Positions 8,677-57,700 of a DNA stretch of 64,000 nt are shown here, piece by piece. How positions within the stretch are numbered: position 1 is the first letter of the stretch; each line of letters starts with the position of its first letter. Source of the DNA: Octopus vulgaris (Eukaryota); NCBI GenBank assembly GCA_951406725.2, contig OX597817.1, positions 126,046,001 through 126,110,000 of the forward strand. Direction: 5' to 3'. Position numbers and translations under genes: made by a program. Below the pieces are notes generated by a model. The model worked only from the letters and a program-made list of their open reading frames with translations, had not been told where the DNA came from and searched no databases.

Positions 8677-9154
8677 TATATATATATAACGGCGCCCCAT
8701 CATGGCCACATTCAAATTACTGAAACATGTAAAAGGAAAGAATGAAAGACTATTTTGTGGGGTGGCCTGTCTGTGTATGTGCATATGTGTATTACAAATG
8801 AGCAAACATGCCTAAAACATCAATCTTTCCATTCTCATGTACTTTTAAATATTTCTGTGGTTAAGTATATTACAAGCCTGTTATTAAATCTCACCGCGCA
8901 TATTAGATCAGAGTACTAGTAAGAGAATTCAACATAATCCTCCAAATGTCGAATTACTGAAATTCTTGAACCGGATGATAAGAGTTCATGCATTTGGCAG
9001 TTTTGTATACATATATGCGACGTTATATTTCTACAGAAGGGACAATCCGAAACTGAAAAAATGCAACGATCTCCAACAATGAGTAAGAAGAGCAGGTCTT
9101 ATTTTGATATTTGGAAGACTAAAGGGTTTAGCTATTATTATTTTATATTGATTA

Positions 9155-9365
9155 GCAGCGAGCTGGCAGAATCGTTAGCTCGCTGGACGAAATGCATTGC
9201 AGTATTTCACTCATCGCTACGTCCTGAGTTCAAATCCTGCCGAGGTCGACCTTCCCTTTCATCCTTTCGGGGTCGATAAATTACGTACTAGTGCAACACT
9301 GGGGTCGATGTAATAGAATAGTCCCCTCCCCACAAACTTCAAGTCTTGTGCCTTTAATAGTAAAT
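9155..9365 (+). mobile_element. tRNA-derived SINE, family B (Deu/Nin-like central domain)
   Basis: GCGAGCTGGCAGAATCGTTAG head, GAGTTCAAATCC B-box and CCTTTCATCCTTTCGGGGTCGATAAA domain. Many copies in the window. Confidence 0.85.
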
Positions 9366-9794
9366 GATTATTATTCTATCTTCAATTATATGAAACTTTC
9401 GCTTGGTTTCTCACAGGCTTCCAAAATCTGTGGCTCATTGAAAATTGGGCTTATGTACTGATGTATCTCAGGCAACATGATTAGAGTTCCATATCAACCT
9501 GTACAGTAATCCCTCGCCATATCGCTGTTCACCAATCGCGGTTTATTATTTAAGCTTACGCCGATTCTTCTGTGGTGTTTTATAGCAAAGTAAATATACA
9601 CAAATCATGAAAAATAATTAAAAGACTATACAGAACAATACTGTTTCCACTTCGCGGATGTTTGCGTATCGCAAGGGGTTTCGAACGTAACACTAGTGAT
9701 AGTCTAGGGGTTACTGTATATCATTAAGACCATAACGTGTTAAGCCGTATGATCGTGAACTTTTGAAAACATATATTATTTAACCTATTATAGA

Positions 9795-10024
9795 TTTCTT
9801 TACTGCCCACAAGGGGGTAAACACAGAGGGGACAAACAAGGACAGACAAAGGGATTAAGTCGATTACATCGAGCCCAGTGCGTAACTGGTAATTAATTTA
9901 TTGACCCTGAAAGGATGAAAGGCAAAGTCGACCTCGGCGGAATTTGAACTCGGAACGTAACGACACACGAAATACGGCTACGCATTTCGCCCGGCGAGAT
10001 AACGTTTTTGCCAGCTCGCCGCCT
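9795..10024 (-). mobile_element. SINE family B
   Basis: Reverse complement of the family B consensus, full length. Confidence 0.85.
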
Positions 10025-10380
10025 TATTTAATCTATTATAGCTAATTAAGTCCCCTTGTATTCTAATGCCTTTTATTGAAATTTATATTGTTTTTTTTAT
10101 TTACCTGCATTTTGTACTTTGTTGTATTTCATCTTGTTTCAGCTTCTTCGATATCGATCCTAATAACGGTGTTATCCTATTATCTTACTAAACTGAAAAT
10201 AGGGCAGTTATAGAGATATGATCAATACAGCTGCGGGTGACACAGCACGAACAGTTTTATTCAAATGCGTTGTTTATTAAGTACTGGCCGTTGTTTATTT
10301 TTTACCTATCTTACGACGGCGAAGGATATGCATATATATTTGCACACTCACTTGTACAAAGACACACACAAACATACAAA

Positions 10381-10412
<32 letters not shown>

Positions 10413-10660
10413 GATTCATGTGCAAGAGCGAAACTCGCAATATCGATGTTTTGAACATGAGACAAGTTACTCATAACTTCGTTGTTTGAAAATGAGTCAA
10501 CATTATGCGACCCCTCTAATTACGCAAACGTCCGGACCGGCGACTACATATGTGAAATTTACGTATATTGGATATCTGAATTATTAAAACTCAAATCTAT
10601 TACTATTTAATGCAGGTAGTACTAAAACTCTGCTATTAATATATTAAAGCATTAGATAAT

Positions 10661-11535
10661 GCGGCGAGCTAGCGGAGTCGTTAGCACACCGGGTGAAATG
10701 CTTAGCGGTATTTTGTCTGCCGTTATGTTCTAAGTTTAAATTCCGCCGAGGTCGACTTTGCCTTTCATCCTTTCGGGGTCTATAAATTAAGTACCAGTTA
10801 CGCACTGGGGTTGATATAATCGACTTAATCCGTTTGTCTGTCCTTGTTTGTCTTCTCTGTGTTTAGCCCCTTGTAGGCAATAAAAAAATAGGTATTTCGT
10901 CTGCCGCTGCGTTCTGAGTTCAAATTAAGCCGAGGTTGACTTTGCCTTTCACCCTTTCGAAGTCGATAAATTATGTACCAGTTACGCACTGGAGTCGATG
11001 TAATCAACTTAATCCGTTTGTCTCTCCTTGTTTGTCCCATCTACATTTAGCCCCTTGTGGGCAATAAAAAAGTCTTGAAAGGTGGCGGGCTGGCAGAAAC
11101 TTAAGCACGCCGGGCGAAATGCGTAGCCGTATTTCGTCTGCCGCTATGTTCTGAGTTCAAAATCCCCCGACGTCGACTTTGCTTTTCATCCTTTCGGGGT
11201 TGATAAATCAAGTACCGGTTACGCACTGGAGTCGATATAATCGACTTAATCCGTTTTTCTGTCCCTGTTTGTCATCTTTCTGTTTAGCCCCTTGTGTGTA
11301 GTAAGGAAATAGGTATTTCATCTGCCGCTACGTTCTGAGTTCAAATTCTACCGCGGTCGACTTTGCCTTTCATTCCTTCGGAGTCGATAAATTAAGTACC
11401 GGTTGCATACTGGGGTTGATTTTATCGACTAACACCCTCCCCAAAGATTTCGGGCCTTTCTCCGTCTTTAGATTCTGAATTCAAATTCCACCAAGGTCGA
11501 CTTTATCTTTCCTCCTTTTGGGTTCCATAAAATAA
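10661..11535 (+). mobile_element. Head-to-tail cluster of about 5 SINE family B units
   Basis: Full units start at ~10661 and ~11081. Headless units start at ~10891 and ~11312, and a partial unit at ~11460. Confidence 0.85.
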
Positions 11536-19807: not shown

Positions 19808-19978
19808 CCTATTTCTATACTACCCACAAGGGGCTAAACACAGAGAGGACAGACAAACGAATTAAGTCGAATATATCGACCCCAGTGCGTAACTGGCACT
19901 TATTTAATCAGAACATAGCGACGGGCGAGATACCGCTAGGCATTTCATCCAGCGTCCTAACATCTCTGCCAGCTCGCA
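19808..19978 (-). mobile_element. SINE family B, internally deleted
   Basis: Reverse complement of the family B tail and head. Confidence 0.75.
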
Positions 19979-20245
19979 CAATGTTTCCTACCGGTCATGT
20001 TTGGGGAAAGGAAGAGTAAAACAACAAACGGAGTGGGAGTGAGTGATAGTCAGAGGCAGTAAAGCATTCGAACAGACTTAAAAGTTGACCTCGGCGGAAT
20101 TTGAACTCAGAACGTGTTCAAGTACCACCGTGTGAGCCATTGGGCAAGTGTCTTCTACTATAGCCCCAGGCCGACCAAAGCCTTGTGAGTGGATTTGGTA
20201 AAAGGGAACTGAAAGAAGGCTGTCGTATATATATATATATATATA

Positions 20246-22324: not shown

Positions 22325-23465
22325 ATAACATTATTTACAATGGACGGAGTGGTGTTCTCACCTTGTTTGTTGTTATCATAACGTCTTCTGGCGGAATTTC
22401 GTACCAAAATGAAGTACACTGTTCTCATTCCTAAAGTATGTTATTTTTCTGTTGATATTAATTTTTCAAGTCCCTGCCTGGGATTGAACTTAGAATCCGA
22501 AGCTTAGAAGTCCACGCTCTTATTCACAATACTACATGATCATGGGCAATAATAGAGTGAATTTTAGGGCTTATATACCTAGTATTTTATTTATTCTTAA
22601 TACTGGTTCCCATCTTACATTCATATCTGCACTAGGTCTGCTTATTGTGTCCTAGAATATGTGCAGCCTCTTTCAATTTTTGTATTTCCCAGAGGTGTTA
22701 TCTGTCGATTATATTAACTACATCCCACAGCGGAGGGTTGTCTCCGTTTTTCCATACATGATCGGGTATACCTGATTTTTCAACACGTCTACATTGCTTA
22801 TTACTGGTGATAATGGCATACTCATAGCTAAACACTCATCCTGTCGATATATATCAGTATCTACTTTGAAGCAGGTAGTTTCTACGCAGAAATTCAACAT
22901 TTCCATCAGGTTTTCTATTGGTAGAGTAGTTCGTTCTTTCCGAGAGGTATCCGTTACTAGTTTGTCTTGAATCACCAATATTGCTTCATTCGTTGAGACT
23001 TTAATAAACAGACTTATCACATCTAGACTCACCATCTCATTGTATCCAATGGGGGTATCCTTGATCAATTCTGTGAAGTGAACGGAATTCTTCACATACA
23101 ATGTTGACTCACCGGCTAATGGACTGATTATACTCTCAAGGAAACAGGCTCAGGGAATGACATGCCGAACCTCCACAGCTCACTATATGTCTTAATGGAA
23201 ATCCATCCTTATGAACCTCCAGGAAACCGTACATATGTGGCAGCTTACTGCAATGTTGGGTCCGTTGTCTGTACTTCATTGGTATGAAATGAGCATTGTT
23301 CTTGATTAAGATCTGTGACAATTTCCACTCTGTTTTCAGAATTGAGTCATTCTTTATTTTGCTGTAGCTACCATCACTTATGAGACTTTCTGAATTTTCC
23401 GAGTATTCAGACTTGTTCATCAGCACCGTAGCGTTGCCCTTATTAGCTGGAAGTATTATGATGGA
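22325..23465 (-). mobile_element. Decayed Penelope-like element (RT, GIY-YIG C-terminus, 3' UTR/pLTR with tRNA-like module)
   Basis: IILPANKGNATVLM, LPHMYGFLEVHKDGFPLRHIVS, MVSLDVISLF, YRQDECLAMSMPLSPV (ORFs 23136-23426 and 22718-23101), then KLKEAAHIL near 22650-22680. The 3' region is homologous to 51960-52095 and 54361-54560. Confidence 0.9.
22468..22536 (-). other. tRNA-like module in the PLE 3' region (degenerate)
   Basis: Minus strand GTGAATAAGAGCGTGGACTTCTAAGC..CTAAGTTCAATCCCAGGCAGGGAC aligns to the tRNA-like module at 54397-54458. Confidence 0.55.
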
Positions 23466-23801
23466 ACTGTACTAAATACAATACACATTTAACGCTTGAT
23501 AAACTGAATTCAAGAGATGAATTAACTGCTGATGACTATTGTAAATTATTTCGATTAAGCGAAAAAGAAATATCACAAGCCTCACTTATTACCGACAATT
23601 GACATGAATTTAGGGACGATACACTCTACATTTTTCTCTCTCTGGATAAGAGAAGACAACTGTATACTCTAGGTTGTGGAACCATGTTATCTCTAAGGCA
23701 ATTTTCTATGCTGATTTTAGAGCCACAGGCCTTTAGATAATGGACTCATAAAAAATAATAATGCATAATTTAAAAAAACTTCGACGTGAATAACATGGAA
23801 A

Positions 23802-25378: not shown

Positions 25379-25409
25379 ATAAGAGTGGTGATACTTACAC
25401 GTAGGTTAA

Positions 25410-25625
25410 GGAGGCGAGCTACAAAAATCGTTAGCAATTCGGATAAAATGATTAATAGCATTTCGTCCGTCTTTACGCACGTTTGCAGTTCAAATTTCGC
25501 CGAGGTCGACATTACGTTTCATCATTTTGGAGTTGATAGAATATTAGCTGGACAACGTAATGTCAATGGAATCGACTTAACCCCTCCTCCGAAAAGGCGT
25601 CCCATATACCAAAATTTGAAATTGG
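25410..25625 (+). mobile_element. SINE family B, decayed
   Basis: GGCGAGCT..AGTTCAAATTTCGCCGAGGTCGAC. Confidence 0.7.
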
Positions 25626-26084
25626 TATGTCCACGTAGATTTACAGTATAAAAATTAGGAGGCAAAACCAAGCCTGTTGAGATTCGAAATTGAATACTCT
25701 AAGGTACTTAGACTAGCATTTTGTTCGTTTCTACGCGATAATTATTCTGTGAGGCACTATCTCACAAATATGTTTACAGGTGTAAAATAGTTAGAAACGT
25801 TCCATTTATGCAAGCGAGATAATTGAATGCTATCACGCATGGAAGGTAGCACACTCGTAGTATCGATTTACCAGAAGGAATACTCAAGAGAAGGTAAAGA
25901 AATGTATAACTGCATCATTTGACTGGTCGATTGGTTTAACACTACCATCTTCCTTTCGCCCTATTATTAGTATAAAAATTATGAAAAGTGTTCATGGAGG
26001 CTGCTCATCTTCTGATTCACATGCATTTTCAATAGAGGAAAAGGCAAGGCAGCGAGATTGCAGATTCGTTACCGCGCTGACATG

Positions 26085-26785
26085 CCATTTCTTCCGAATT
26101 TGTCATCGACGACAACATTTCTAGAGAGTGTGCTGCCAAGGCAGGTGAACTTGCCCACCGCGTTCAGTCGCTGCCCGTTGATGGTGATGTTGGGTTCAAC
26201 GTAGGGTTTGGTTGGAGCTGGCTTATACATTACCTTAGTCCTTTTTGTATTGATAGTAAGGCTACAGTTGCTGCAGGTGCCAGAGAACAGGTCAATACTG
26301 TGCTGCATGTTGGACTCAGTGGCAGCATTGAGAGCGCAGTCATCGGCGAACAGGAGGTCGTTGACGGTGTCCACTTAAACCTTGGTTTTCGCTTTGAGCC
26401 TCCCGAGGTTGAAGACTGAACAATTGAACCGGTACTTGATGCCGATGCCTATGACTGTGTCCCTGAAAGCATCTGTCAGCATGGCTGAGAACGTAAGGCT
26501 GAACAAGGTGGCAGCAAGGACACATCCTTGTTTCACTCCGTTGGAGACAGGGAATGGATCAGAAGTCTCTACGTTGTCCTGTATCCTTGCCAGCATTCCA
26601 TCGTGTAGTTGTCTTACGATGGTGATGAATTTTCTGGGGCATCCTTACTTCGCCAAGATTCTCCAGAGACCTTCTCTACTAACGGTATCAAAGGTCTTGG
26701 TCAGCTCGATGTAGGTGGAGTAGAGGTCGACGTTTGGCTCCCGACACTTCTTCTCTGCAGCTTTCTAGCAGCAAACACCATGTCG
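26085..26785 (-). mobile_element. RTE-clade LINE reverse transcriptase fragment
   Basis: IELTKTFDTVSREGLWRILAK, GVKQGCVLAATLFS, DLLFADDCAL, LTINTKRTKVM, FTCLGSTLS. Confidence 0.92.
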
Positions 26786-27880: not shown

Positions 27881-29334
27881 TAATGTCAATGAATAAAGAG
27901 AGAATTTACGATAAGAAAGAATTCTCAGCTATATTTTTCTTAAATCTCTACTGCAGTAACATGAAATATTATTATTGTTGTTAGTGTTAGTATCATAATT
28001 ATTGTTATTAAGGCGGCAAGGCGGCAGGAACGTTAGTGCCTTGAACCAAGTGCTTAGCGCTATTTCGTCCATCTTTACGTTCAGAGTTCAAATGCCACCA
28101 GGGTCTACTTTACCATTCACAGATTTAAACTCAGCATTTAAAGCAGCAGAAGATAAGATGTAAAGGAATTTTACCGAAGTTCAGCAACTCTGCTAATTCT
28201 TTGCCTTCTGGACATTAAAATAATTTTAATGATGCTGCTGCTGACGGGGATGAGGATCATGAGAATGATGATGATTGCAGTAATGACAATGGAAGCTACT
28301 GCCATTGTGCGACAACCACAAAGATAGCAGCGAAGTTAGCAGCAATAACGACTGCGTGAAGTTGCTGGTGACGATGATATTAATAATAAATAAATTGCTG
28401 GGTATATTTATGATATTAAAGTCAGATATTTAAGGTTGATAGTGAGAGAAACGTTATTGTGTTTATAAGTATCATAATGCGAAAAAGACCATTTAATACT
28501 GCTAATGATATTTATGGTGTGAATGACGTTGATGGTAATGAAGAATATATATCATGATTATGATGACGGTGACGCCGAAGATTATGTAGATGACGATGTA
28601 TATAGTAAGGATAACGATGATGTAGCTGATGATGTTTGTGATTATAATAAGCAAGATAATGAAGACATAAGTATGGATTGCAACGGCTGTTATCGCATTA
28701 AAAGTAATCCTAATTACCACGTGAGATACAAATACTCATTGCTTGATCGATGGAATAACGTTTACGATACTGTTTTCATGAATCATTAGAAACTTTTAGT
28801 TTCAATATCTCCCTCTCTCAGATCAGTTGTTTATTCTTTTTTCTCTATGTTTGCAAAACTTCGTCGATATTCTTCGCCTGTGTCTATCACAATAGTGACA
28901 CTGAAAACATCTTTACAAACAGTTATCATGCCATTACGCTTTCACGGTAATGATTGGGGGTTTTCTCATTTCGTGTTTCACTTACTTTTCTTCTGAAATT
29001 GTAAGTAAAAACCTTCACCGATTTACCCGTGAATGAATTGGTTAACCTAACAACAGTTCAAAAAGACCTGTCTTGCATGGTGCGTATTTGCCTCATTATA
29101 TTTTCTTATTTCTCGTTGCTGCAAGCTACACGTTGCCTGGAAATTTTTGCTGTGGCATTTGCAAAAACAATTATGTCTACGCATTTAGTATGTTAAATGT
29201 AAATTGTATATAGAGCTGTATAATTGATTCCGCACCTTCTCTTCTGCAATGATATGACATCATTTCACGTTTATATTGGAAGATATATTTGAACAATATA
29301 CTATATATCGTTTTCAGATTTTGACAGAAGGATG

Positions 29335-29490
29335 AGGGCTTAACTCGATTACACAAACTCCAGGTTCTAATGATTTTTATTCTATCGACCCCAAATGGAT
29401 GAAAAGGAAAGTTGACTCAGAACATAATGACAGATGAAATGTTGCAAAGCATTCTGCTCGGCGCGCTAACGATTCTGCTAGTTCGCTAGT
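29335..29490 (-). mobile_element. SINE family B, decayed
   Basis: TATCGACCCCAAATGGATGAAAAGGAAAG..GCTAACGATTCTGCTAGTTCGC. Confidence 0.65.
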
Positions 29491-30294: not shown

Positions 30295-31760
30295 TAAAAT
30301 AAAAATTGCAATAGTAAAGCTCTTGGACAGGATGATATTCTCAAAGACGTTTACACGCATCACAGTTGGCAGCTTGTAAGAAATTTACCCAGATTCATCT
30401 GTTCGATCTGGGAAACTGGATCTGTTCTCCAACAGTTAAAAAAATGCAACTATAACACACTTGTATTTAAACAAAGGGAAGAATATTTTATTTGATAATA
30501 AAAAGGGAATACATTTGCTGTGAATTGCTGGAAAAATATTTTCGACAGTGTTTCTTAACTGCGTCAATAAGCATGTATTAAACCACATGTATTATTAATC
30601 TCAATATCGATTTGGGACATAAATAATGCCGTTAGGCAATTCAAGCAAAATATTAATTTCTACATGGTCTTTGTCGAGTTGCCCAAGGTCTTTGACACAG
30701 TGAATAATAAATTGATGAAGGTAACAGTATCTCTACACGAAGGAGTTATAGCAACAGTGATAACTAACGGTCAATGTCCAGAGGTATTTTCTGTCTCTAC
30801 TGGAACTAAGCAGGGCTGTTTTGTTTTGCTCCTGTACTGTTGCCATATTCTTTCCGATGATGCTCCCAACATGCTTTTAAGGGTTACTATGAAACTGCAA
30901 AATTTCAGTATTGTACAGATGGAGATCTACTACATGTAAATGGACAAGGCTTCGGGACAAAGAAAAAGACAAAGGAAGCGATTCTAACTGAATTTCTGTT
31001 AGCTGCTAATTGCACTGTGATTTCTCATACATTTGAGGGAATTCAGAAAATAGCTGACAGATTTGCTGCTGCAGCTCATGCATTTGGGCTTACTATTAGC
31101 ATTCAGAAGAAATACGTTTTATTCCAACAAAGGCCGGGGACAGATTATAGTGAAGATTCGTATGTGACAATAAGCCACTCAAATTACGTCATTTAAATAT
31201 CTTGAAAGTACAATAAAATCTAAGAGTACTTTTGATTACGAAATCAATGTAGGAATATTTAAGACTACAAGTGCTTTTGGAAAACTTTCTCTTCCTTAAT
31301 GGAATTAACACGACGTCAGATTTAAAACTGAAACACGTGTATATACATAATTTATTTTGAGTACGCTTTTGTACGAGACTGAAACACGAACTCTCTATTA
31401 CAGACATATAAACAAACTTGAAACTTTTCACATGTGCTGTCTGCGCAATATCTTCCACATAAAATACATAGAATACGTAAAATGTATCTCCACCATCGAA
31501 AGCATGCTTTTCAGAATTCAATGCATTTGGTAAAGACATGTTGTTCGTATGCAAGATGATGGCATTCCGAAAATTCTTTTATATGGCCAACAAATAGAGG
31601 GATTGTGTGGTAAAGCAGACCTGTCCTTAGGTTTAAGGAACAGTTGAAACAATCTCTAAAATCGTTACATCTTGTTTAAGCATCTTTCGAAATGTATTAT
31701 CAACATCGACGTAAGTACCGTAAAAAGTGTCATGTGGCAGCTAAACAACCGGAAAAACAG
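30295..31760 (+). mobile_element. Old RTE-clade LINE (RT region and C-terminus), heavily decayed
   Basis: KALGQDDI, MVFVELPKVFDTV, GTKQGCFV, FGLTISIQK, FKYLEST, HVVRMQDD GIPKILLYG, LRFKEQLK. Confidence 0.8.
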
Positions 31761-31999
31761 AACAATTAAAGGATTATATCCTGCAATCAACAGTCATATT
31801 TATTCACTCCCTGGCAAACCATAATCTTCAACGTCTCTATTGTTACTTTAAAGCAAAAGCAATACCTGGACTCAAATTGTATTCACACCCCCAACGCAAA
31901 TAGATGCAACATCTCTTATTTTGCCTTATAATCATTTTTTTATATCTTTTATTTCAAACATTCATACGTCAAAATCGAGGTGAGTGACTAACGTTATTA

Positions 32000-32215
32000 A
32001 GGCGGTGAGCTGACGGAACAATTGGCACACCGGGCAAAGTAATTAGCAACATTTCGTCTGCCTGCTAGTTCTGAGTTCAAATTCCGCTGAGGTCAACTTT
32101 GTCTTTCATCTTTCTGGCTCGATAAATTAAGTACCAGTGAAACACTGGAGTCGATGTAATCAACAGGTCCCCTCCCCTAAAAGTTCAGGCCTTGTGTATA
32201 TGGTAGAAAGGATTG
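32000..32215 (+). mobile_element. SINE family B
   Basis: GGCGGTGAGCTG head through GTTCTGAGTTCAAATTCCG and CACTGGAGTCGATGTAAT. Confidence 0.8.
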
Positions 32216-33615: not shown

Positions 33616-33689
33616 TGGTAATAGGCTATCGCTTTATCATTATTAATATCACCATCATCATCATCATGGTCATTATCCTCATCGTCTAG

Positions 33690-33890
33690 GCTGCGAGCTT
33701 GCAGAATTATTAACACGCTGGAAGAAATGATTTAACAGCTTTTCGTCCGTCGTCACGTTTTCAGTTCAAATTTCACCGATTTCTACTTTGCCTTTCTGGG
33801 TCGATAAAATAATTTCCAGTTGAAAACCGGTGTCGATGTAATGGAGTTATCCTCTCCTCTGAAATTGATAGCCTAGTGCCAACATTTGAA
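33690..33890 (+). mobile_element. SINE family B, decayed
   Basis: GCGAGCTTGCAGAATT..CAGTTCAAATTTCACCGA..GGGTCGATAAAAT. Confidence 0.7.
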
Positions 33891-34039
33891 ATCATTGTCG
33901 TCGTCATCGTCGTCGTCGTCGTCGTTGTCGTCGTCGTCATCATCATCGTCATCCTCATCATTATTATTCAGTTCTAGTGTTTATATCACGTGCTTTTAGT
34001 ACCCCACTGAATGCTCCTCCCGGTGCCTTGAGTATATGC

Positions 34040-34420
34040 TGTCGTTTGTTTAGGTGTTATTTTTTGTATATTTAAAATATTTTATGCAGGCTATGTGCAG
34101 GCCAAGCAGTGCTATTTTCTGCATCTTATATACATTCGTAAGACATGGTATTTTAGATATATATTTTCTGTGTGCATTTTAAGAATAGTTTATGCACCTA
34201 TTATTATAGGGATTATATCTCTTTTTAGACCCCGTATTAAGCTTAACTCTATTTCCAGAGTTTTAAATTTCCAGACTTTTTGTTCTTTTTTGAAATACAT
34301 TGTCATTTGATTAGAAGGCACCCTTTACTTGGTGGTCCTGGACGACACTATCTGGTCTGAGAGCTTTGTTTTCTTTATATGTGTGTATTGGCATTTCCAA
34401 GTGTATGGTTGTTTTGTTAT
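34040..34420 (-). mobile_element. Second REL-domain non-LTR 3' fragment
   Basis: MPIHTYKENKALRPDSVVQDH aligns to WDMPIYTDREMKANRPDIFVRDH in the 52339-53055 ORF. IIPIIIGA follows downstream. Confidence 0.7.
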
Positions 34421-39280: not shown

Positions 39281-42200
39281 AACTAGATTCTCAACTAATA
39301 AGGACTGGTAAACTAAAATCTATCTGTAACAGCTCTGCTTAGAACTCTAAATTAATTATGTGACGGCTTTTTGCCGTGAACTCTAAAATATTGTAATAGC
39401 TTTCGCTGACTTCAATGTGAGTTTTTGCAATATTTCTTCCTTAATACATAACTGAATTATTATGGACTTGTTTCGTATAATTGCCATTTCCTTTTTGTCT
39501 AACCGTAACAAACGTGGGGGCTACTCAGGGATATCGAAGAGACATCCCCCACCCAAAAAAAAAGATCTATTTCATTTTTCTGCATAACCTCTTTTTTTTT
39601 TGACTGAAACCAATAAAACAAAAATGTCTTTTAAACTGTCGGATTTTCTAAAGTCCCCTATCTGTGAGGCAGTAGGTACCTTGCGCAAATCGGATCTGTC
39701 GGACATTTCGGCGCACTTCAAATTTAGGGCTAAACCTGCTATGAGGAAGTGTCAGATCTTGAAAATTGTTTTGAATCACTTCGTCGATGAAGTCGACTTT
39801 GAACATCATGTTTTAGAGATAGTAACGGAAGAACCTTCAGATGATTTGGAAATAAAAAAGGCTTCAGGTCCAATTAGAAATGAAGTTAGGAAAAGAAATT
39901 GAGCTTAAAAGATAGAAACTTCTTTTCCTCCCTCAAATCTTCCCTGTTTCGAAGTTGCGAGATATGCCAGACTAGTTCTTCCTTTCAATGAAAAAGAGGT
40001 AGAGAAGTATTTTCTACATGTCGAAAAGGTTTCTGAAAACATCAAGTGGCTTAAGGAGTCGTGGACTATGCGACTGCAAAGTATGTTGCCAGGTAAAGCT
40101 CAATACACATTTACGGCCTTATCTGCAGAATAGCGTTCAGATTATGATCTGGTTAAGGGGACATAACTAAACACTTATGAGTTAGTACTCAAAGCTTATC
40201 AACAAACATTCAGGAATGCTCATAAAAGAGACAATGAGATTTTTGTAGAGTTTGCTAGGAAGAGAGAAACTTTCTTTGATTGGTGGTGTAGTTCTAAGGT
40301 GGTCACATATGTTGATATCTTGAGGCAGTTTTGATGGAGGATTTCAAACAGAGTGTTCATTCCGATCTCAGGATATATTTGGATGAAAGAAAGGATGGTG
40401 TTTTCTCATAATGCCGCTATGTTGGCGGATGACTATTACCTGACTCACAGCGATTCTTTTTGATCATCGTCTTCTGGTTCAAAAGGGTTTGTTCCCGGGT
40501 AGGAGTTCAGGTCTTGCAGGTTCCAGTTGTGATAGAACGAGATCACTTTTTTTCGGAGAGGCGGTCCCATTCACCCTAGCTTAATTCTAGGATTCCCACT
40601 GGTTTTGGTCCTGTATGTGCATATTGTAAGAGGCCAGGTCATTTGATTCCGGCATGTCCCAAACATATCAGTCCACGGTTTTCCCAAATGCTTTTGTTTC
40701 TGTCGCACCTAATCCTTTCTCTTTGGAGAGTTTTGATTGTGAAAGAGAACTTCCAGATTCCATAGTTCGGAAGCTTTTGTCCTTTGTATACAAAAGTTCC
40801 GTGTCATGGGTATAATTCTGCCATTAATATTTTGCGGGATACTGGAACTCTCCAGTCCCTGATATTGAAGGATATATTTCCTTTCAGCGAACTCAGAGGT
40901 TTCGCTTCAGACTATAGGTGGCTATTTTCTCGCTCCCCTCCATTTTGTCAATTTAACAGCAGATTTGATTTCTAGTGAGGCGAAAGTAGGTGTTCTTGAC
41001 TCTCCTCCAGTTCCGTGTGTCGATTTATTGATCAGAAGTGATCTTATGGGATCCAATGTGTTGCTGATCCCATGATCACTGTTTCTCCAGAGAGTTCAGC
41101 TAGTACAGAAAAGATAGAGGAGGATTTTTCCGGTATTTTTCTTTCTTGTGAAGTTATTCGTTCGATGTCGAAAGACATCTCTTCCAAGTCTTCTTTACCT
41201 AAGTATTCCATTTGTGATTTGTCAGGTAATTTCATGGATCATTCTTTTTGCAAGGTATAAGCATTCTTTCTAGAGAGCAATTTGTTAGTACGCAGAGTGA
41301 GGATGCTGACTTACAGAAGTTAGCTAATAAGGCTATTTCTTTTGAGGAGATTAGCTAGATTCCAGTTTGCTACTGCTTTCGGGATGATATTATGATGAGG
41401 AAATATAGACCACCGGACATTTCCGCGGGGTATGTGTGGAAAGTGTACCATCAAATTGTGGTACCTAAATTGTTTCGGAATCATGTGCTTTCAATGTCAC
41501 ATGAAGGTCCCATGGCAGATAAAGCATCTGAAAAAATTTGGTATATTTCGTTTTGCCTAGTTTGGATCAAGATGTGGCTGAATTTTGTAAAAACTGCCGT
41601 GCATGCCAAATTGTTAGAAAACATTTCAGTCATGTTGATTACTTACCTAAGACTAACTCTGTTACTTGGTGTCCTCTCACTATCATATGTGCTTCTGCCC
41701 GATTTCCTCAAGCTATTCCTCTTCGTAGGATTGCCGCTCTTGTGATTGCAAAGGATTTGGTTTTCTGTATCTGCATTGTATATCATACTTCAGTGTTTTA
41801 CTTACGATGTTAAGTGTATTATCACTGTTATTGTTACAGAAAGCGTTTGTGATACTTTCGTTACCCTAAGTGGGTGTGAGTGTTAGGAAAGTGTGTTTTC
41901 CTTGGAAATAGGAGACAGTGAATTCTGTTTCGGCATGTAGATGCGAACCTGAATTTATAGAATTCCCCTTGAGGTTACAACGGCCTTTTCTCACGGAAAA
42001 TGCAATGGTTGACAGCAGTGACGCTCAACACATGGCCTGCCAAATAAATTCATATATTTCCCACTTGACATTTTTGACCTCTCCTATGGCAGAAAAAGCT
42101 GAAATTAAATAAGAGGCACCTACAAATGTTTTCCATTGTTCTCGGTGACATCTCTCTCTTTTTCTCATTTTTCTGCGATAATTATACATACCAAAATTCC

Positions 42201-51100: not shown

Positions 51101-51931
51101 TCATAGGTTAACAAACATATATGACAATAATTTTTTAAACAATTGTTTAGTTAAATTATACAAAACTGAATTGTGTCTAAGTATCACTTGTGCCATTTTA
51201 TCCCCTATATAACCAACGCATCCATAAATACACATGTGCAAGTGCACGCAAAAATACACACACACACATATATACATACGTACATACATACCTACACTGT
51301 CCACAACACATGAGCACCCAAATGCGCGGCACGTCAACACACATAACTAGTGGGATAGAGATTTATAGATAGATAGATCGATCTAGAGAGATAGGGAGAC
51401 AATGAGCGAGATAGAGAGAAATAGAGCAAAAGAAATAGAGAGATGCATCCGGGTTCTCCGTAGGGTCTCCCAGCGAAATTACAACGGCTTGAAATATGAA
51501 TTTAAGAGAACACGCATCCAGAACATTAAACAAGACGTTGACCATGAAAGCATGTTAGAAAAAAGCGTGCACAACGTAAACCTTTATTACTTGAATCCCA
51601 ATATGGAATTCCTTATTATAGGTAATAGGTTATATTTTGCAATGTTGCGAAAATATGATGATGAAATATAAATGTTTTAAATGTTTATGTAAAATATAGG
51701 TTAAATAAAGATATCTAATGAATTATTAAAGAATGGTGTATGTATATGGAAGAGTTTTACCTATACTATTTCAGAAATATCATGACGCGGAGTAGGAGTA
51801 TATGGACAATTTAAATGATCAAGTAATATTAACATGTATTTTCATGACTGAAACATAAATTTGCAAAGGATTTCTACATAAGTTTATGAGAATTCAGAGA
51901 ATTTCAGATAGAGTGAATAATAATAAAACTA

Positions 51932-52100
51932 CAGCTCTATATTTAAGAGATGGGGTATTATGTACATTATTTACATTATTTGCATTTGACAGATATTTGT
52001 CCTCATCTTGTTTGTTGTTAACACAACGTTTCGGCTGAAAAGCTGTCTTGGAAATATTTCGAACACTGCGTACTCATTCCTAAGGTATTTTTTGATGTTG
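51932..52100 (-). mobile_element. Left arm of inverted PLE pLTR (3' half of a minimal HHR)
   Basis: Minus strand GGAATGAG..TTCGAAATATTTCCAAGACA[deletion]CAGCC-GAAA-CGTT-GTGTT-AACAACAAACAAGATGAGGAC. Homologous to 22330-22440 and 54541-54605. Confidence 0.7.
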
Positions 52101-52139
52101 TTATTATTATTACTATTATTTTATTATTATTATTATCAT

Positions 52140-54270
52140 TATGATTCAGTAGTATATTTTTTATATCATGCTTTCACTTCAATACCGAGCACAGCTCTGT
52201 GTGCCTTGGGTATGTGCTGTGATTTGTTGTGATGCTCTGATGGTTATTGTATGGAAAGCGTTCTGCATAGGATGTGTGCAGTGCCTAGTAGTGCAATTGT
52301 CTGTATGTTATATGTGTTTGTAAGTCCTGGTGTTTTTCTTATGTATTTGAATATTTTTTTATCATGCCTAATGTACCTATTATGATAGGAATTGTTTCTG
52401 TTTTTACATTCCACATTCTGGTTACCTCTATTTCAAGGTCTTTGTATTTTGAAAGTTTCTCCATTTCTTTTAGAGATACGTTGTCATCCGCTGGTATTGA
52501 TACATCAATTAGAAAACATTGTTTTTCTTCATGATCTCTGACAAATATATCTGGTCTGTTGGCCTTCATTTCCCTATCTGTGTATATTGGCATATCCCAG
52601 TGTATGGTTGCTTTCACGTTTTCTGTGACCTTTTCTGGTGTGTACCTATACCATCTTTTTTCTGTTGTTATTCGATAATGTTGGCATAGTTTCCAGTGTA
52701 TATAAGTCCCAACTCTGTCGTGTCTATGAATATATGCTTTCTTAGCCACGACTGGGCAGCCAGAGATAATATGATTCATTGTTTCTTGTCCATCTCCACA
52801 TATTCTGCAGTTACTTGTTATATTTCTTTTCATTACATGTCTTTGGTAATTTCTGGTGGGGAGGCTTTGGTCTTGTGCTGCAATTAAAAATTCTTCTGTC
52901 TCTGCTTTGAGTTCTGAGCTTCTCAACCATTGTTGGGATTTTTCTTTGTCTATTTCTTTTACATTTAGTTTAGTCCAGTATTTACCATGAAGGGGCTTTT
53001 CTTGCCATCGTTTTATCATGGTTCGTTGCTGTTCTATTTTCAGTTTGGATTTCATTTGTTTTATAGCTTTTGTTGTACCTTCATCTTCTTCTTCTTCTTC
53101 ATATTTGTTAGGTGGTATGATTTCTTGTTTGTATATGTCAGCTTCCTTAAATACTGAGAACAGTTTTTTGTTTTACTCGTGTTTTGCGGCTATTTGTATC
53201 AGTTTTCCTTCCTTCTGAAGTAGATATTGTTTGCAGTCCTATGGTAGTTATTTTATTGTAGTTTTCCAGCTGTATAAGGCCTCTACCACCATCTATACGT
53301 TGTATATATAGCCTTTCTATGTCAGATTTTGGGTCATGCATCCTAGACCCTGTCATTATTTTTCTTGTTTTCCTATCTATTTTGGTCAGTTCATTTAGTG
53401 TCCAGTTAAGGATATTGTAGCTGTAACTTATAACTGGGACGGCTAAAGTGTTGATGCCTATTATCTTGTTTTTAGCATTGAGCTCTGTTTTCAGTATTGA
53501 TCTAACTCGTCTATAGTATTCTTTTTTTATTTTCTCTTTCATTTGTGTGTGTTGTGTCTTATCAAACGCCTTTTTGTAGTCGATCTAGGCCAGAATAAGG
53601 CCTTTCTTCTTTCTGTGGCTGACTTCAGTTATGGCTTTATTGATCAATAGTTTACAGCCATATGAGCCTTTGCGGCATCCTTTCTGCTCTTCTGGAAACA
53701 GGTTGTTTTCGTCCAGGTGCTTGTTCAATCTTTGCGATATCACTGCAGTAAATGCTTTGTACATTGTACGGAGACAGGTTATAGGTCTGTAGTTTTCTTG
53801 TTTTGCTGCCTCATTTGTTTTGGGAATTAAGATTGTTTTCCCCTTCGTGAGCCACTCAGGCATTGTCTCTGGCTCTGCCAGTATGTTGTTAAAATTTTCA
53901 GCCAGCTTTTTGTGCATTCCTGTTAGATATTTCAACCAGAAATTGGGATCTTGTCATGCCCAGGTGCCTTCCAGTTGCTTAGTCTTTGCAGTGCCTGGGT
54001 GATCTCTTCAGTTGTTATGGGGGTCCAAATTTGCTCAGATGCTGAGTTTGTTGTTTTAATACTCCGTTTTCCTGGTTGTTCGTTCCCCGTCCATATTTCT
54101 CTCCAGAATTCTTCCACTTCTTCTGCCGTTGGTGCTGCAGTGATTTCTATTTTATTTTTGCCAAGTTCTTGGTAGAACTTTTTGGGGTTGGAGTTGAACT
54201 GTTTGTTTTGTTCAAAGAAACGTTGGCGTTTCTTGTACCGGCGGATCCTTTGTGCTTTGGCAAGGATATC
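52140..54270 (-). mobile_element. R4/Dong-clade LINE (RT N-terminus, CCHC, REL), 5'-truncated and internally deleted, within (TAA)n
   Basis: NWKAPGHDKI, YRPITCL, EQKGCRKGSYGCK, IDYKKAFD then a jump to the thumb region, GGRGL, CRICGDGQETMNHIISGC, RPDIFVRD..LIDVSIP..KEMEKLSKYKDL. (TTA)n on both flanks. Confidence 0.93.
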
Positions 54271-54341
<71 letters not shown>

Positions 54342-54360
54342 GTTGTTGTTGTTATTATTA
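54271..54360. repeat. (TTA)n microsatellite, mirrored by (TAA)n at 54459-54524
   Basis: Directly visible. Confidence 0.95.
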
Positions 54361-54458
54361 TTCGGGTCACTGCTTGGAATCGAACTCGGAATCTTGGGTT
54401 TAACAGCGCGGCCTACTAACCCCAAGAATCCAAGTTCGATTCAAAGCAGTGACCTGAA
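54361..54458. other. Inverted pair of tRNA-like modules at the centre of a fold-back PLE insertion
   Basis: 54361-54400 is the near reverse complement of 54418-54458. Contains a GTTCGATTC B-box/T-loop and a CTACTAA anticodon-loop-like hairpin. Confidence 0.7.
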
Positions 54459-54527
<69 letters not shown>

Positions 54528-54605
54528 ATCGAAAAATAAAGAATGAGAACCCAGGGTTCGAAATTTCCCCAAGACACCTGATGAAAGCTGGAGGATATAT
54601 CAGCC
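54459..54605 (+). mobile_element. Right arm of inverted PLE pLTR (5' half of a minimal HHR)
   Basis: (TAA)n..GAATGAGAACCCAGGGTTCGAAATTTCCCCAA-GACAC-CTGATGA-AAGCTGGAGGATATATCAGCC, truncated just before GAAA. Confidence 0.7.
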
Positions 54606-55899: not shown

Positions 55900-56709
55900 T
55901 ATTAACAGGAACTCCGTATACAAGACTAACCATTTTTGAGATAAACTGGGCCACAACAGGGACACTCGATGGCACCAACTAAATATGAGATTTCGAAGGT
56001 TATAAAACTCTCACATAAAGCTTTTTCGAACCAGGAAATCAAAATTCTTGCTAAGGGATTGATGTGCACCTCAACGCCACAAATTTCGAACCTAAACGAT
56101 ATACAAAATGATATCCAAGAATTCTGCAGAAAACTTCGCATCACTGAAGAACTGCTGGATAAAGTTAATAATGATCAATCAATCCTTCACAATAAAAGTA
56201 ACTACTGTCCGACAAGCGAAAAAAATCAAACTCTGGATAATTTTGTGATGTGATATCCAGTTACCGCTACAATTTACTCCCAACCCCAAAATTTAAAACA
56301 AATACAAGTAGAGAAAAATGTGAAATCATCAATAATCTCAAGGAGGATGACACAATAATTATAATAGAAACTGACAAAGGGAGTACTGTAGTTATCATGG
56401 ACTCAGAAAAAATACATAAACACTACCCTAATCTTCCTTCGAGACAATAGCTACTATGAAAAAAATCAACACCTACAGTCAATCCAAGATAATGACCAAA
56501 TTGTCTACCCTTATTCACAAGTTCATCATGATAGATCGCTACTCACTACACATTATTTTCTCTCCTAGTTTCTTTCTGTGTTCCTTTCTAACGAAGAGCG
56601 ATGGCTCGAAGCGTTAAAGATTGTTTCACTTCCCGAGTGTTAAACTAATACATGGTTGTTTTTTACACTACCTGTTTTCGTCTTCTGTTTTTGTTGTGAA
56701 ATCTCCCTA
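55900..56709 (+). mobile_element. Internally deleted Penelope-like element (N-terminal/RT start fused to pLTR)
   Basis: VIKLSHKAFSNQEIKILAKGLMCTSTP..DIQEFCRKLR and NLKEDDTIIIIETDKGSTVVIMD, then a pLTR with degenerate HHR (CTAACGAA-GAGCGATGGCTC-GAAG-CGTT-AAAGA, 56588-56620) ending CTCCCTA-(TA)n. The 5' boundary is uncertain and may extend to ~55300. Confidence 0.82.
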
Positions 56710-57489
56710 TATATATATATGTATACATACATATATACCTGTACTAACTTTATACTGTGTCACTGTGAAATGTTGATTGTTTAAAATATTGTAGTACAGC
56801 TATGTCGGAATAAAATACTGTGCAGTAAATTTCTCAAATTTGGCAACTTGCGCAGTAATAATATGTGTGTTTATGGGGGAAAATATAAAGAAAAACTTTA
56901 GGATTACTGGAATGTAAATATTTAAAATATTTTAGGTAAGTTTACATAGAAATATAAATACGTCAACCTTTAAAATTGTGTCAGAATTAGAAATGTATGT
57001 CGATATTGTTTGTGTATTTAGTTGTTAAACTATAATGCCTGCAAGGTATGGTTATTTAATATCAAAATCTTGGATATTTCAAATTAACGTCTATAGAATA
57101 GTTGATGAATGTCTAGTTAAAGTAATTGTAATACACAATTGTTAGTGTTAAGTATTGAAAATAAGCAACGACTAAGTGCGTGTTTGCATAATGTAATCGG
57201 GTTATAAATTATAGGGAATCGTGCAAAATTAATTAATAAATAACAATGTAAAAAGCAATTGATAGAAGTTAATAGAATACTTTTCTAACAACGGCAAATT
57301 TCTATAAAATCTTTTAAGTTTTCAAGGAGTAAAATAAATAAAGATTTATCAATAATAAATAAAAATTAAATAGATGTAAATGATAATATGGAAATCCTTG
57401 TTATCAAATCAAATTTTACTAATTCAGATGCAATTATGAGGGGATTGGCTTAATCGACGATATGGACACGAATATCTGTCCGATTTAAG

Positions 57490-57700
57490 TCGACGACTTG
57501 GCAGAATCGTTAGCACGCCGGAGAAAATACTTCGCAGCATTTTGTTAGCTTTTGCGTTCTGAGTCCAAAAGCTGTCTAGATCGACTTGCCTTTTGATAAT
57601 TCAGGGGTTGATGAAAGAAAGTACCAGTAGAGCACTGGGGTCGATGTAATCTATTAGAACTTTCTCTGAACTTGCTGGCCATGTGTCAAAATTTGAATTC
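57490..57700 (+). mobile_element. SINE family B
   Basis: TGGCAGAATCGTTAGCACGCCGG..GTACCAGTAGAGCACTGGGGTCGATG. Confidence 0.75.

Follow-up and report, generated by a model that had tools for sequence, protein, structure and literature searches.

The window analysed here is a stretch of 64,000 nucleotides of Octopus vulgaris DNA (contig OX597817.1 of assembly GCA_951406725.2, positions 126,046,001 to 126,110,000, forward strand). At 51931-54605 it carries two inverted 3' ends of a Penelope-like element (PLE), and the repeat of this PLE family (the pseudo-long terminal repeat, pLTR) includes a tRNA-derived sequence, the head, at a fixed place between the stop codon and the start codon of the element. 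From its sequence features, we lean towards the reading that this fixed head served as the internal RNA polymerase III (Pol III) promoter of the element, with a start just upstream of the head. The anatomy was read directly from the sequence, and promoter use, start site, read-through and translation are what we infer from it.

The repeat unit displayed the following order: stop codon of the open reading frame (ORF), a 29-nt spacer, a 77-nt head with boxes A and B, a (TAA)n run, 24 nt, the ATG and an in-frame hammerhead ribozyme. A consensus drawn from genomic copies contained a single open frame of 836 codons, extending from the ATG of GAATGAGAAC through the hammerhead to a GIY-YIG-type domain. 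An earlier, sequence-only reading of the locus had proposed the order tRNA-like module, (TAA)n, GAATGAGAAC, hammerhead at 51932-54605, which the sequence bears out, and had overlooked that GAATGAGAAC holds the start codon of the ORF. In tandem copies the upstream repeat provides both head and start codon for the downstream ORF, and such a sense repeat was present upstream in 18/22 ORF-start copies. The head-anchored set comprised the first 70 matches to the head motif on the first chromosome (two pairs look like segmental duplicates), and 37 of these copies could be assigned an antisense partner.

By inspection, the consensus protein displayed DKG, YVDD and a terminal VYSIPC..GET / CCHH region. 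Its linker between reverse transcriptase (RT) and endonuclease, likewise by inspection, lacked the Zn-finger found in Neptune and Nematis, a criterion that separates these clades from Penelope/Poseidon in the available text of PMC8557442. Domain RVT_1 was found on natural copies and PF01541 on some homologues, and a Pfam GIY-YIG call was absent on the natural copy tested. By these feature criteria the family probably belongs to the Penelope/Poseidon clade; its best homologues carry no family name. A natural relative (P0003) also has an N-terminus encoded by the hammerhead, its frame reading through the ribozyme. When P0003 was used as a query for a second, head-less Poseidon family in the octopus genome, matches fell mostly at the known places of the present family. 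Copies differed in the number of a 9-nt tandem unit within the coding tail (e.g. window 51960-52000), a variation that keeps the reading frame.

In the hammerhead core, G10.1 is preceded by an additional base and pairs with C11.1, and helix III is palindromic (15.2-16.2) and loopless, all features defined for PLE minimal hammerheads in the part of PMC4209133 available to us. Helices I and II formed in the predicted fold of the family consensus, whose core is intact. Searches covering the whole 2.80-Gb genome gave 1,875 exact pattern matches for the intact core (0 for the reversed control) and 1,745 for a 24-nt head motif (0 control matches); these numbers are lower bounds on copy number. The hammerhead that had been reconstructed by joining the two arms of the locus is thus a real feature of the family, although neither arm here contains an intact one. 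Counted from the ATG, the predicted cut falls at 70 nt and the ends of copies near +122 or +155, consistent with the tail of 30-40 nt that insertions of this clade carry at one end. Since 13/18 ORF-start copies with an upstream repeat reached 5' of the cut, uncleaved RNA was the template, and the cut was rejected as the origin of the template 5' end.

Of 44 distinct ORF-end copies, with three loci represented by both arms, 40 have the head 29 nt past the PLE stop codon, and the four exceptions were deletions or rearrangements, never an empty pre-insertion site. For this reason the head is part of the element and not a separate SINE (short interspersed element). The ORF end and the head were also bridged in contigs filed under four other organism labels. 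It has to be weighed whether head and (TAA)n form an independent SINE inserted in some PLE copies, as the combination of a head and a simple-repeat tail recalls. A PLE tail was found within 700 nt in 57 of the 70 head-anchored copies, and the 13 without it could be taken as such free SINEs, as could the likeness of another host SINE head to that of the PLE (46 identical positions, z 5.6). Yet these 13 copies enter differing secondary insertions or flanks, with no single alternative body. A comparison of 41 long with 126 short copies gave matching frequencies of non-CpG variants (26:15 against 81:43, p 0.85; 23:5 against 89:19, p 1); because short and long copies have the same variants, with no alleles of their own in either, the module is not an independent SINE. 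It does not constitute the independent non-autonomous lineage typical of tRNA-derived SINEs (SINE2), and this explanation is very improbable and largely refuted. Nor did the short unit occur in the tandem arrays that had been envisaged, as no sense tail was found within 600 nt upstream of any of the 70 head-anchored copies (0/70 in direct tandem).

The head is tRNA-related, but without a cloverleaf. Boxes A and B were intact in the consensus head (index 7 and 52), as in SINE2 heads, and the best tRNA match was the host tRNA-Arg(TCG), with 49 identical positions (z 7.4 against shuffles). This comparison covered 30 tRNA loci representing only Arg, Ala, Thr, Cys and Lys plus two odd calls, and other isotypes scored close. 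As another host SINE head was also similar, a SINE may be the ancient donor. The tRNA-like nature was therefore borne out for the promoter boxes and not for the fold: ARAGORN detected 0 tRNA genes in the window and 0 on the head down to -ps70, and Rfam returned only microsatellite noise for the window and neither a tRNA (E 10) nor a hammerhead match for an intact copy. Where the spacer meets the head (window 22541-22555), its final bases repeat the beginning of the head in imperfect inverted form, which suggests capture of the head through a fold-back junction. Among related PLEs from other hosts, no A+B box pattern was present in the 400 nt that follow the ORF (0/47); 28 of the 47 sequences appear to end at the endonuclease. 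One ARAGORN match (L381) was discarded, being upstream of the ORF match and looking like an unrelated insertion.

The second line of evidence concerns Pol III terminators. Runs of four or more T (T4) on the sense strand were absent both from the 2,505 nt ORF and from the non-coding part of the element, whereas 2.9 would be expected from codon shuffles (P 0.023) and 4.3 from base shuffles (P 0.010). Control elements behaved differently: a Dong ORF displayed three runs in 2,430 nt, as expected, and a Neptune-type PLE of the same genome, with equal T content, 8-9 runs in 2,343 nt. Among 106 related loci of other hosts, 47 had a frame of at least 1.2 kb and 46 of these contained T4 runs; all related ORFs of at least 2 kb (23/23) had at least four. 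The absence is not an artefact of the consensus, since natural decayed copies (116 kb in total) displayed 0.47 runs per kb and no single site recurred in more than 8/65 copies. Host tRNA genes carried a T4 or longer run within 40 nt in 33/40 cases. No TATA, CCAAT or CRE (cAMP response element) motif was observed near the head, whereas the repeat of the Neptune-type PLE has many. A promoter at this position also agrees with Penelope of D. virilis, whose promoter occupies the same region (PMC2377424).

The Neptune-type PLE is young, with many intact 781-aa frames. By inspection, its repeat (3' of the ORF at L343, L353 and L364) consists of an array of CCAAT + CRE (TGACGTC) units with a TATA-like box behind them, a long terminal repeat (LTR)-like Pol II promoter of variable length.

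The distribution of 5' ends gave a third indication, open to more than one explanation. In 70 hammerhead-anchored copies (of the first 72 listed), the 50 nt preceding the ribozyme contained 20 of the 5' ends, the TAA run 16 and the head 8; another 23 fell at +3 to -30, and 3 further upstream. In other words, 23 of the 26 copies reaching the head stopped at its start, where about 22% would be expected at the downstream loss rate (binomial P 1.6e-12). Only 1 of the 18 ORF-start copies with an upstream repeat extended beyond the head. Of the head-anchored set, 13 copies continued natively upstream, 16 folded back and 41 began at the head, 40 of them within 8 nt, and the 1,745 head matches of the whole genome gave 320 palindromic and 153 native junctions. 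Spacer and head start together form the strongest hairpin of the unit among 30-nt windows (-9.6 kcal/mol, top 0.7% of windows).

Such a pattern may also arise with the head as a mere passenger, i.e. an old tRNA or SINE fragment fixed in a short 3' untranslated region of an element transcribed by Pol II, from a TATA-less internal promoter or by host read-through, whose hairpin stalls RT or primes fold-back and thereby yields short, palindromic copies. The strength of the hairpin, the 16/70 fold-backs centred on it, the excess of palindromic junctions, the alleles common to short and long copies and the TATA-less promoter of Penelope (PMC2377424) are all in line with this explanation, which we regard as tenable although less probable than promoter use. 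It leaves unexplained the absence of T4 against three kinds of control. Moreover, the ends cluster at the loop (0 to +3) and not at the stem base (about +10), and boxes A and B were kept though the cloverleaf was lost.

Ribonuclease P (RNase P) might likewise cut a long Pol II transcript at the tRNA +1 position of a tRNA mimic, freeing short templates and setting their 5' ends. Of the 41 copies that neither fold back nor continue natively, 21 started within 1 nt of the first G of the head (in a set selected for an intact head start), and 11/26 ended at 0 to +3 in the unselected set; here too, the common alleles of short and long copies are accommodated. RNase P, however, requires acceptor and T stems. 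The consensus, by inspection, keeps only about 5/7 acceptor pairs and 3/5 T-stem pairs, in agreement with the failure of ARAGORN (relaxed threshold) and Rfam to find a cloverleaf, and the absence of T4 is again left unaccounted for. Processing of this kind is accordingly judged improbable.

If the head acted as a promoter, Pol III would begin a few bases upstream of it (near -6). Such a start would fit the spacing between start and box A of SINEs in rodents, and the resulting cDNA end could fold back onto the hairpin. From any 3' repeat, transcription would yield a short head-to-tail RNA with everything that the protein of the element needs, and because of this, truncated copies would behave like built-in SINEs. 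From an upstream repeat, Pol III could read through the terminator-free ORF. By analogy with Poseidon of Anolis, reverse transcription probably started internally on uncleaved RNA, and fold-back at the hairpin spanning the head start is a likely source of the frequent palindromes. A bolder version, in which a coding retrotransposon was transcribed end to end by Pol III, with a promoter captured between stop and start codons, terminators purged from a 2.5-kb frame, its uncapped RNA translated and each truncated head-bearing copy a ready-made SINE, appears doubtful to us.

Several observations weigh against promoter use by Pol III. The T4 result rests on one family, with P about 0.02; G4 runs were likewise absent from the ORF (expected 1.06, P 0.28), and one of the 47 related ORFs (1.4 kb, partial) was also free of T4. 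The PLE protein contains 2.4% Phe against 3.3 ± 0.7% in 28 long homologues (P0003 is low too), and this low content could be cause or effect of the T4 absence. The hairpin at the head start could alone cause the pile-up of 5' ends, by RT stalling or fold-back priming and without any promoter. Short copies displayed no variants of their own and hence no sign of spread as a lineage. The missing TATA box is compatible with Pol II, since the one PLE promoter found to have been tested, that of Penelope in D. virilis, is described in the available part of PMC2377424 as TATA-less, LINE-like (long interspersed element) and with a spliceosomal intron. Translation of an uncapped RNA is unexplained under Pol III transcription. 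Three RNA-seq runs (labelled as another or the same species) displayed equal depth on both strands and no pile-up at starts or ends. Depth over the ORF was far below that over the repeat, a pattern that fits passive read-through of embedded copies and is silent on Pol III. Finally, no intact ORF copy was found, the longest stop-free frame among 150 RT matches being 569 aa. Long pieces averaged 91.7% identity to the consensus and the family looks inactive, so that the autonomous PLE with a tRNA-derived module in its pLTR that had been postulated holds as a coding family with a fixed head, its autonomy being only ancestral.

The locus that gave rise to this study is itself a dead remnant, in which two 5'-truncated Poseidon-type 3' ends of a single PLE repeat family, inverted and head to head, were split by a later Dong/R4-type insertion (Table 1). 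Its description as a PLE pLTR therefore applies to both arms and not to the intervening LINE, which had been overlooked. The right-arm head corresponds to head positions 19-77 and forms the head-to-head junction with the left arm; since it begins at position 19 and the left one at about 28, box A is absent from both. In the left arm the start-codon motif is mutated and the hammerhead lacks the CTGATGA box. Its remaining half contains the helix II 3' strand, GAAA, the palindromic CG, the cleavage triplet GUU and the helix I 3' strand, with the predicted cut between 52025 and 52024. The right-arm hammerhead ends at CAGCC, before GAAA (54605), and displays an A in place of the family G10.1.

Table 1. 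Features of the two PLE loci of the window (positions in window coordinates)
Positions	Strand	Feature	Basis
22328..22570	-	pLTR of the second-copy remnant (29-nt spacer, decayed head, tail)	Sequence, alignment
22571..23470	-	Decayed ORF remnant of this PLE family, with ORF nt 860-1545 fused to 2285-2508	blastn 84% and 80%
51931..52097	-	Left-arm PLE pLTR tail, full 3' tail	blastn and pairwise alignment with the family consensus, 78% over 185 nt
52020..52037	-	Hammerhead 3' half (minimal type I)	Sequence; family core pattern
52098..52144	-	Degenerate (TAA)n, made up of the rest of the left-arm spacer and the Dong insert's 3' tail	Sequence; (TAA)n after Dong 3' ends in other copies
~52145..54270	-	5'-truncated, broken Dong/R4-type LINE (RT, CCHC finger, restriction-like endonuclease) in the left-arm (TAA)n	ORF pieces; domains; homology
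54271..54360	-	Left-arm (TAA)n spacer (TTA on plus)	Sequence
54361..54410	-	Left-arm tRNA-like head, 5'-truncated, box B only	Aligned with positions ~28-77 of the head consensus
54400..54458	+	Right-arm tRNA-like head, 5'-truncated at position 19, box B present	90% over 59 nt
about 54461..54522	+	Right-arm (TAA)n spacer	Sequence
54541..54550	+	GAATGAGAAC	ATG at 54543-54545, predicted start codon of the family 836-codon ORF
54573..54605	+	Hammerhead 5' half (helix I 5' strand, CTGATGA, helix II)	Sequence; alignment

The second copy of the window (22325-23470) was 80-84% identical to the family consensus, 5'-truncated and lacking ORF nt 1546-2284. Its head (about 22465-22541) was 76% identical and GAATGAGAAC was present at 22421-22430; the (TAA)n run was absent and the hammerhead core deleted. 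The same module order had been announced for 22325-23465, about 70 nt downstream of the GIY-YIG end. Of these modules, a decayed head was recovered, 29 nt after the stop codon.

The nested LINE is most likely of the Dong/R4 type, to which it was assigned by domains, homology and its (TAA)n site rather than by a tree. Domain matches were RVT_1 and zf-RVT, and its C-terminus matched an R2 protein (E 7.6e-5). The 2.1 kb insert was 90-93% identical to one genomic copy and belongs to a family with 140 scored genomic copies of at least 90% identity. A TAA-type run followed the Dong 3' end in 23/23 copies where the end motif was found (30 loci examined). TAA repeats are the target of Dong elements according to the available text of PMC3812793, and Table 1 of PMC13282606 includes Dong-R4 among the elements active in octopus. 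The insert shares with Dong elements the restriction-like endonuclease and the location in (TAA)n, and displayed nothing unusual. Dong pieces were also observed in or beside the (TAA)n of this PLE at six other loci (L003, L008, L064, L116, L139 and L175), the spacer being a landing site, and another TAA-inserting repeat occupied the spacer at L116, L157 and L179. An older Dong-like fragment (68% identical) lies at window 33957-34415 (-).

The window further contains many copies, some inverted or in partial tandem, of another SINE-like repeat (9136-11525, 19908-20115, 25407-25533, 27995-28121, 29415-29486, 31998-32196, 33688-33878 and 57486-57657). An ORF fragment at 55945-56253 (+) resembles by eye the N-terminal part of a Neptune-type PLE, with no blastn match to L343. 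Fragments resembling RTE-type RT and LTR-element pieces occur at 26069-26714, 30571-31196, 39588-39902 and 41359-41745. Outside octopus, Poseidon-like ORFs were encountered in contigs of prokaryotic metagenome-assembled genomes (L451-L476), most likely through contamination of bins by host animals.

Coding retroelements are usually transcribed by Pol II and non-coding SINEs and miniature terminal-repeat retrotransposons (TRIMs) by Pol III, as presented in the accessible parts of PMC10886601 and PMC5786205. A coding PLE with a fixed tRNA-type promoter and a terminator-free frame would, if confirmed, cross this division and explain in a simple way how SINEs mobilised by PLEs, for example the hammerhead elements of Schistosoma, could arise. 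The 300-nt repeat makes two questions testable, namely by what means PLEs are transcribed in species other than D. virilis and whether a natural element has its Pol III RNA translated. Should the head instead be a passenger, the family would be a clear case of a structural hotspot shaping truncation and palindromes in PLEs. Many repeats labelled as SINEs in the genome may be PLE ends.

In the portions of the literature available to us (including PMC13282606, PMC8967140, PMC7761336, PMC5786205 and PMC4494074), no coding PLE was described as having a tRNA-derived promoter; the family may already be present, perhaps under a SINE label, in Repbase, SINEBase, the octopus repeat library or supplements. 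PLE repeats are the source of animal retrozymes, and the part of the report that could be consulted (bioRxiv 10.64898/2026.07.22.740005) makes no mention of tRNA, Pol III or promoter. In Penelope of D. virilis the promoter likewise lies within the pLTR, formed from the 3' untranslated region of the upstream copy (PMC2377424). It differs by the TATA-less, LINE-like organisation and intron cited above, and no tRNA-like part is described for it in the available text.

TRIMp3 elements Cassandra, Helenus and Ajax share with the octopus element a small-RNA-derived Pol III promoter, or its likeness, in a terminal repeat, there probably acquired by SINE insertion (PMC10886601, as far as available). 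They are non-autonomous LTR elements of less than 1.3 kb, in contrast to the coding element that holds the tRNA-like sequence in octopus, and the same source argues that their autonomous partners must use Pol II. The succession of a Pol III promoter and a hammerhead was already known from Sm-alpha and Sj-alpha of Schistosoma, which the accessible text of PMC6765202 presents as non-coding, SINE-like, often tandem and released by cleavage. In octopus, the module belongs to a coding element, short copies are dispersed or inverted (0/70 in direct tandem) and the cut does not set their ends.

Among the closest known systems is also Poseidon of Anolis carolinensis (PAc). It and other Penelope-Poseidon PLEs have a single ORF with RT plus a GIY-YIG-type endonuclease at the C-terminus, together with tandem and inverted pLTRs (PMC11167929, PMC8557442 and PMC4209133, each seen in part). 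The minimal hammerhead with palindromic helix III, an ORF start that overlaps the hammerhead and lies 5' of the cut, and the use of uncleaved RNA as template (in vitro for PAc; PMC11167929) are likewise common to both, as are two element ends about 33 nt apart, slightly more than 100 nt into the ORF. The octopus family distinguishes itself by a pLTR consisting almost wholly of the tRNA-derived A/B-box head and (TAA)n, whereas no tRNA-like part is described for PAc in those texts, by a hammerhead lying entirely within the ORF (cut at +70, against +26 in PAc) and by an ORF free of T4 runs.

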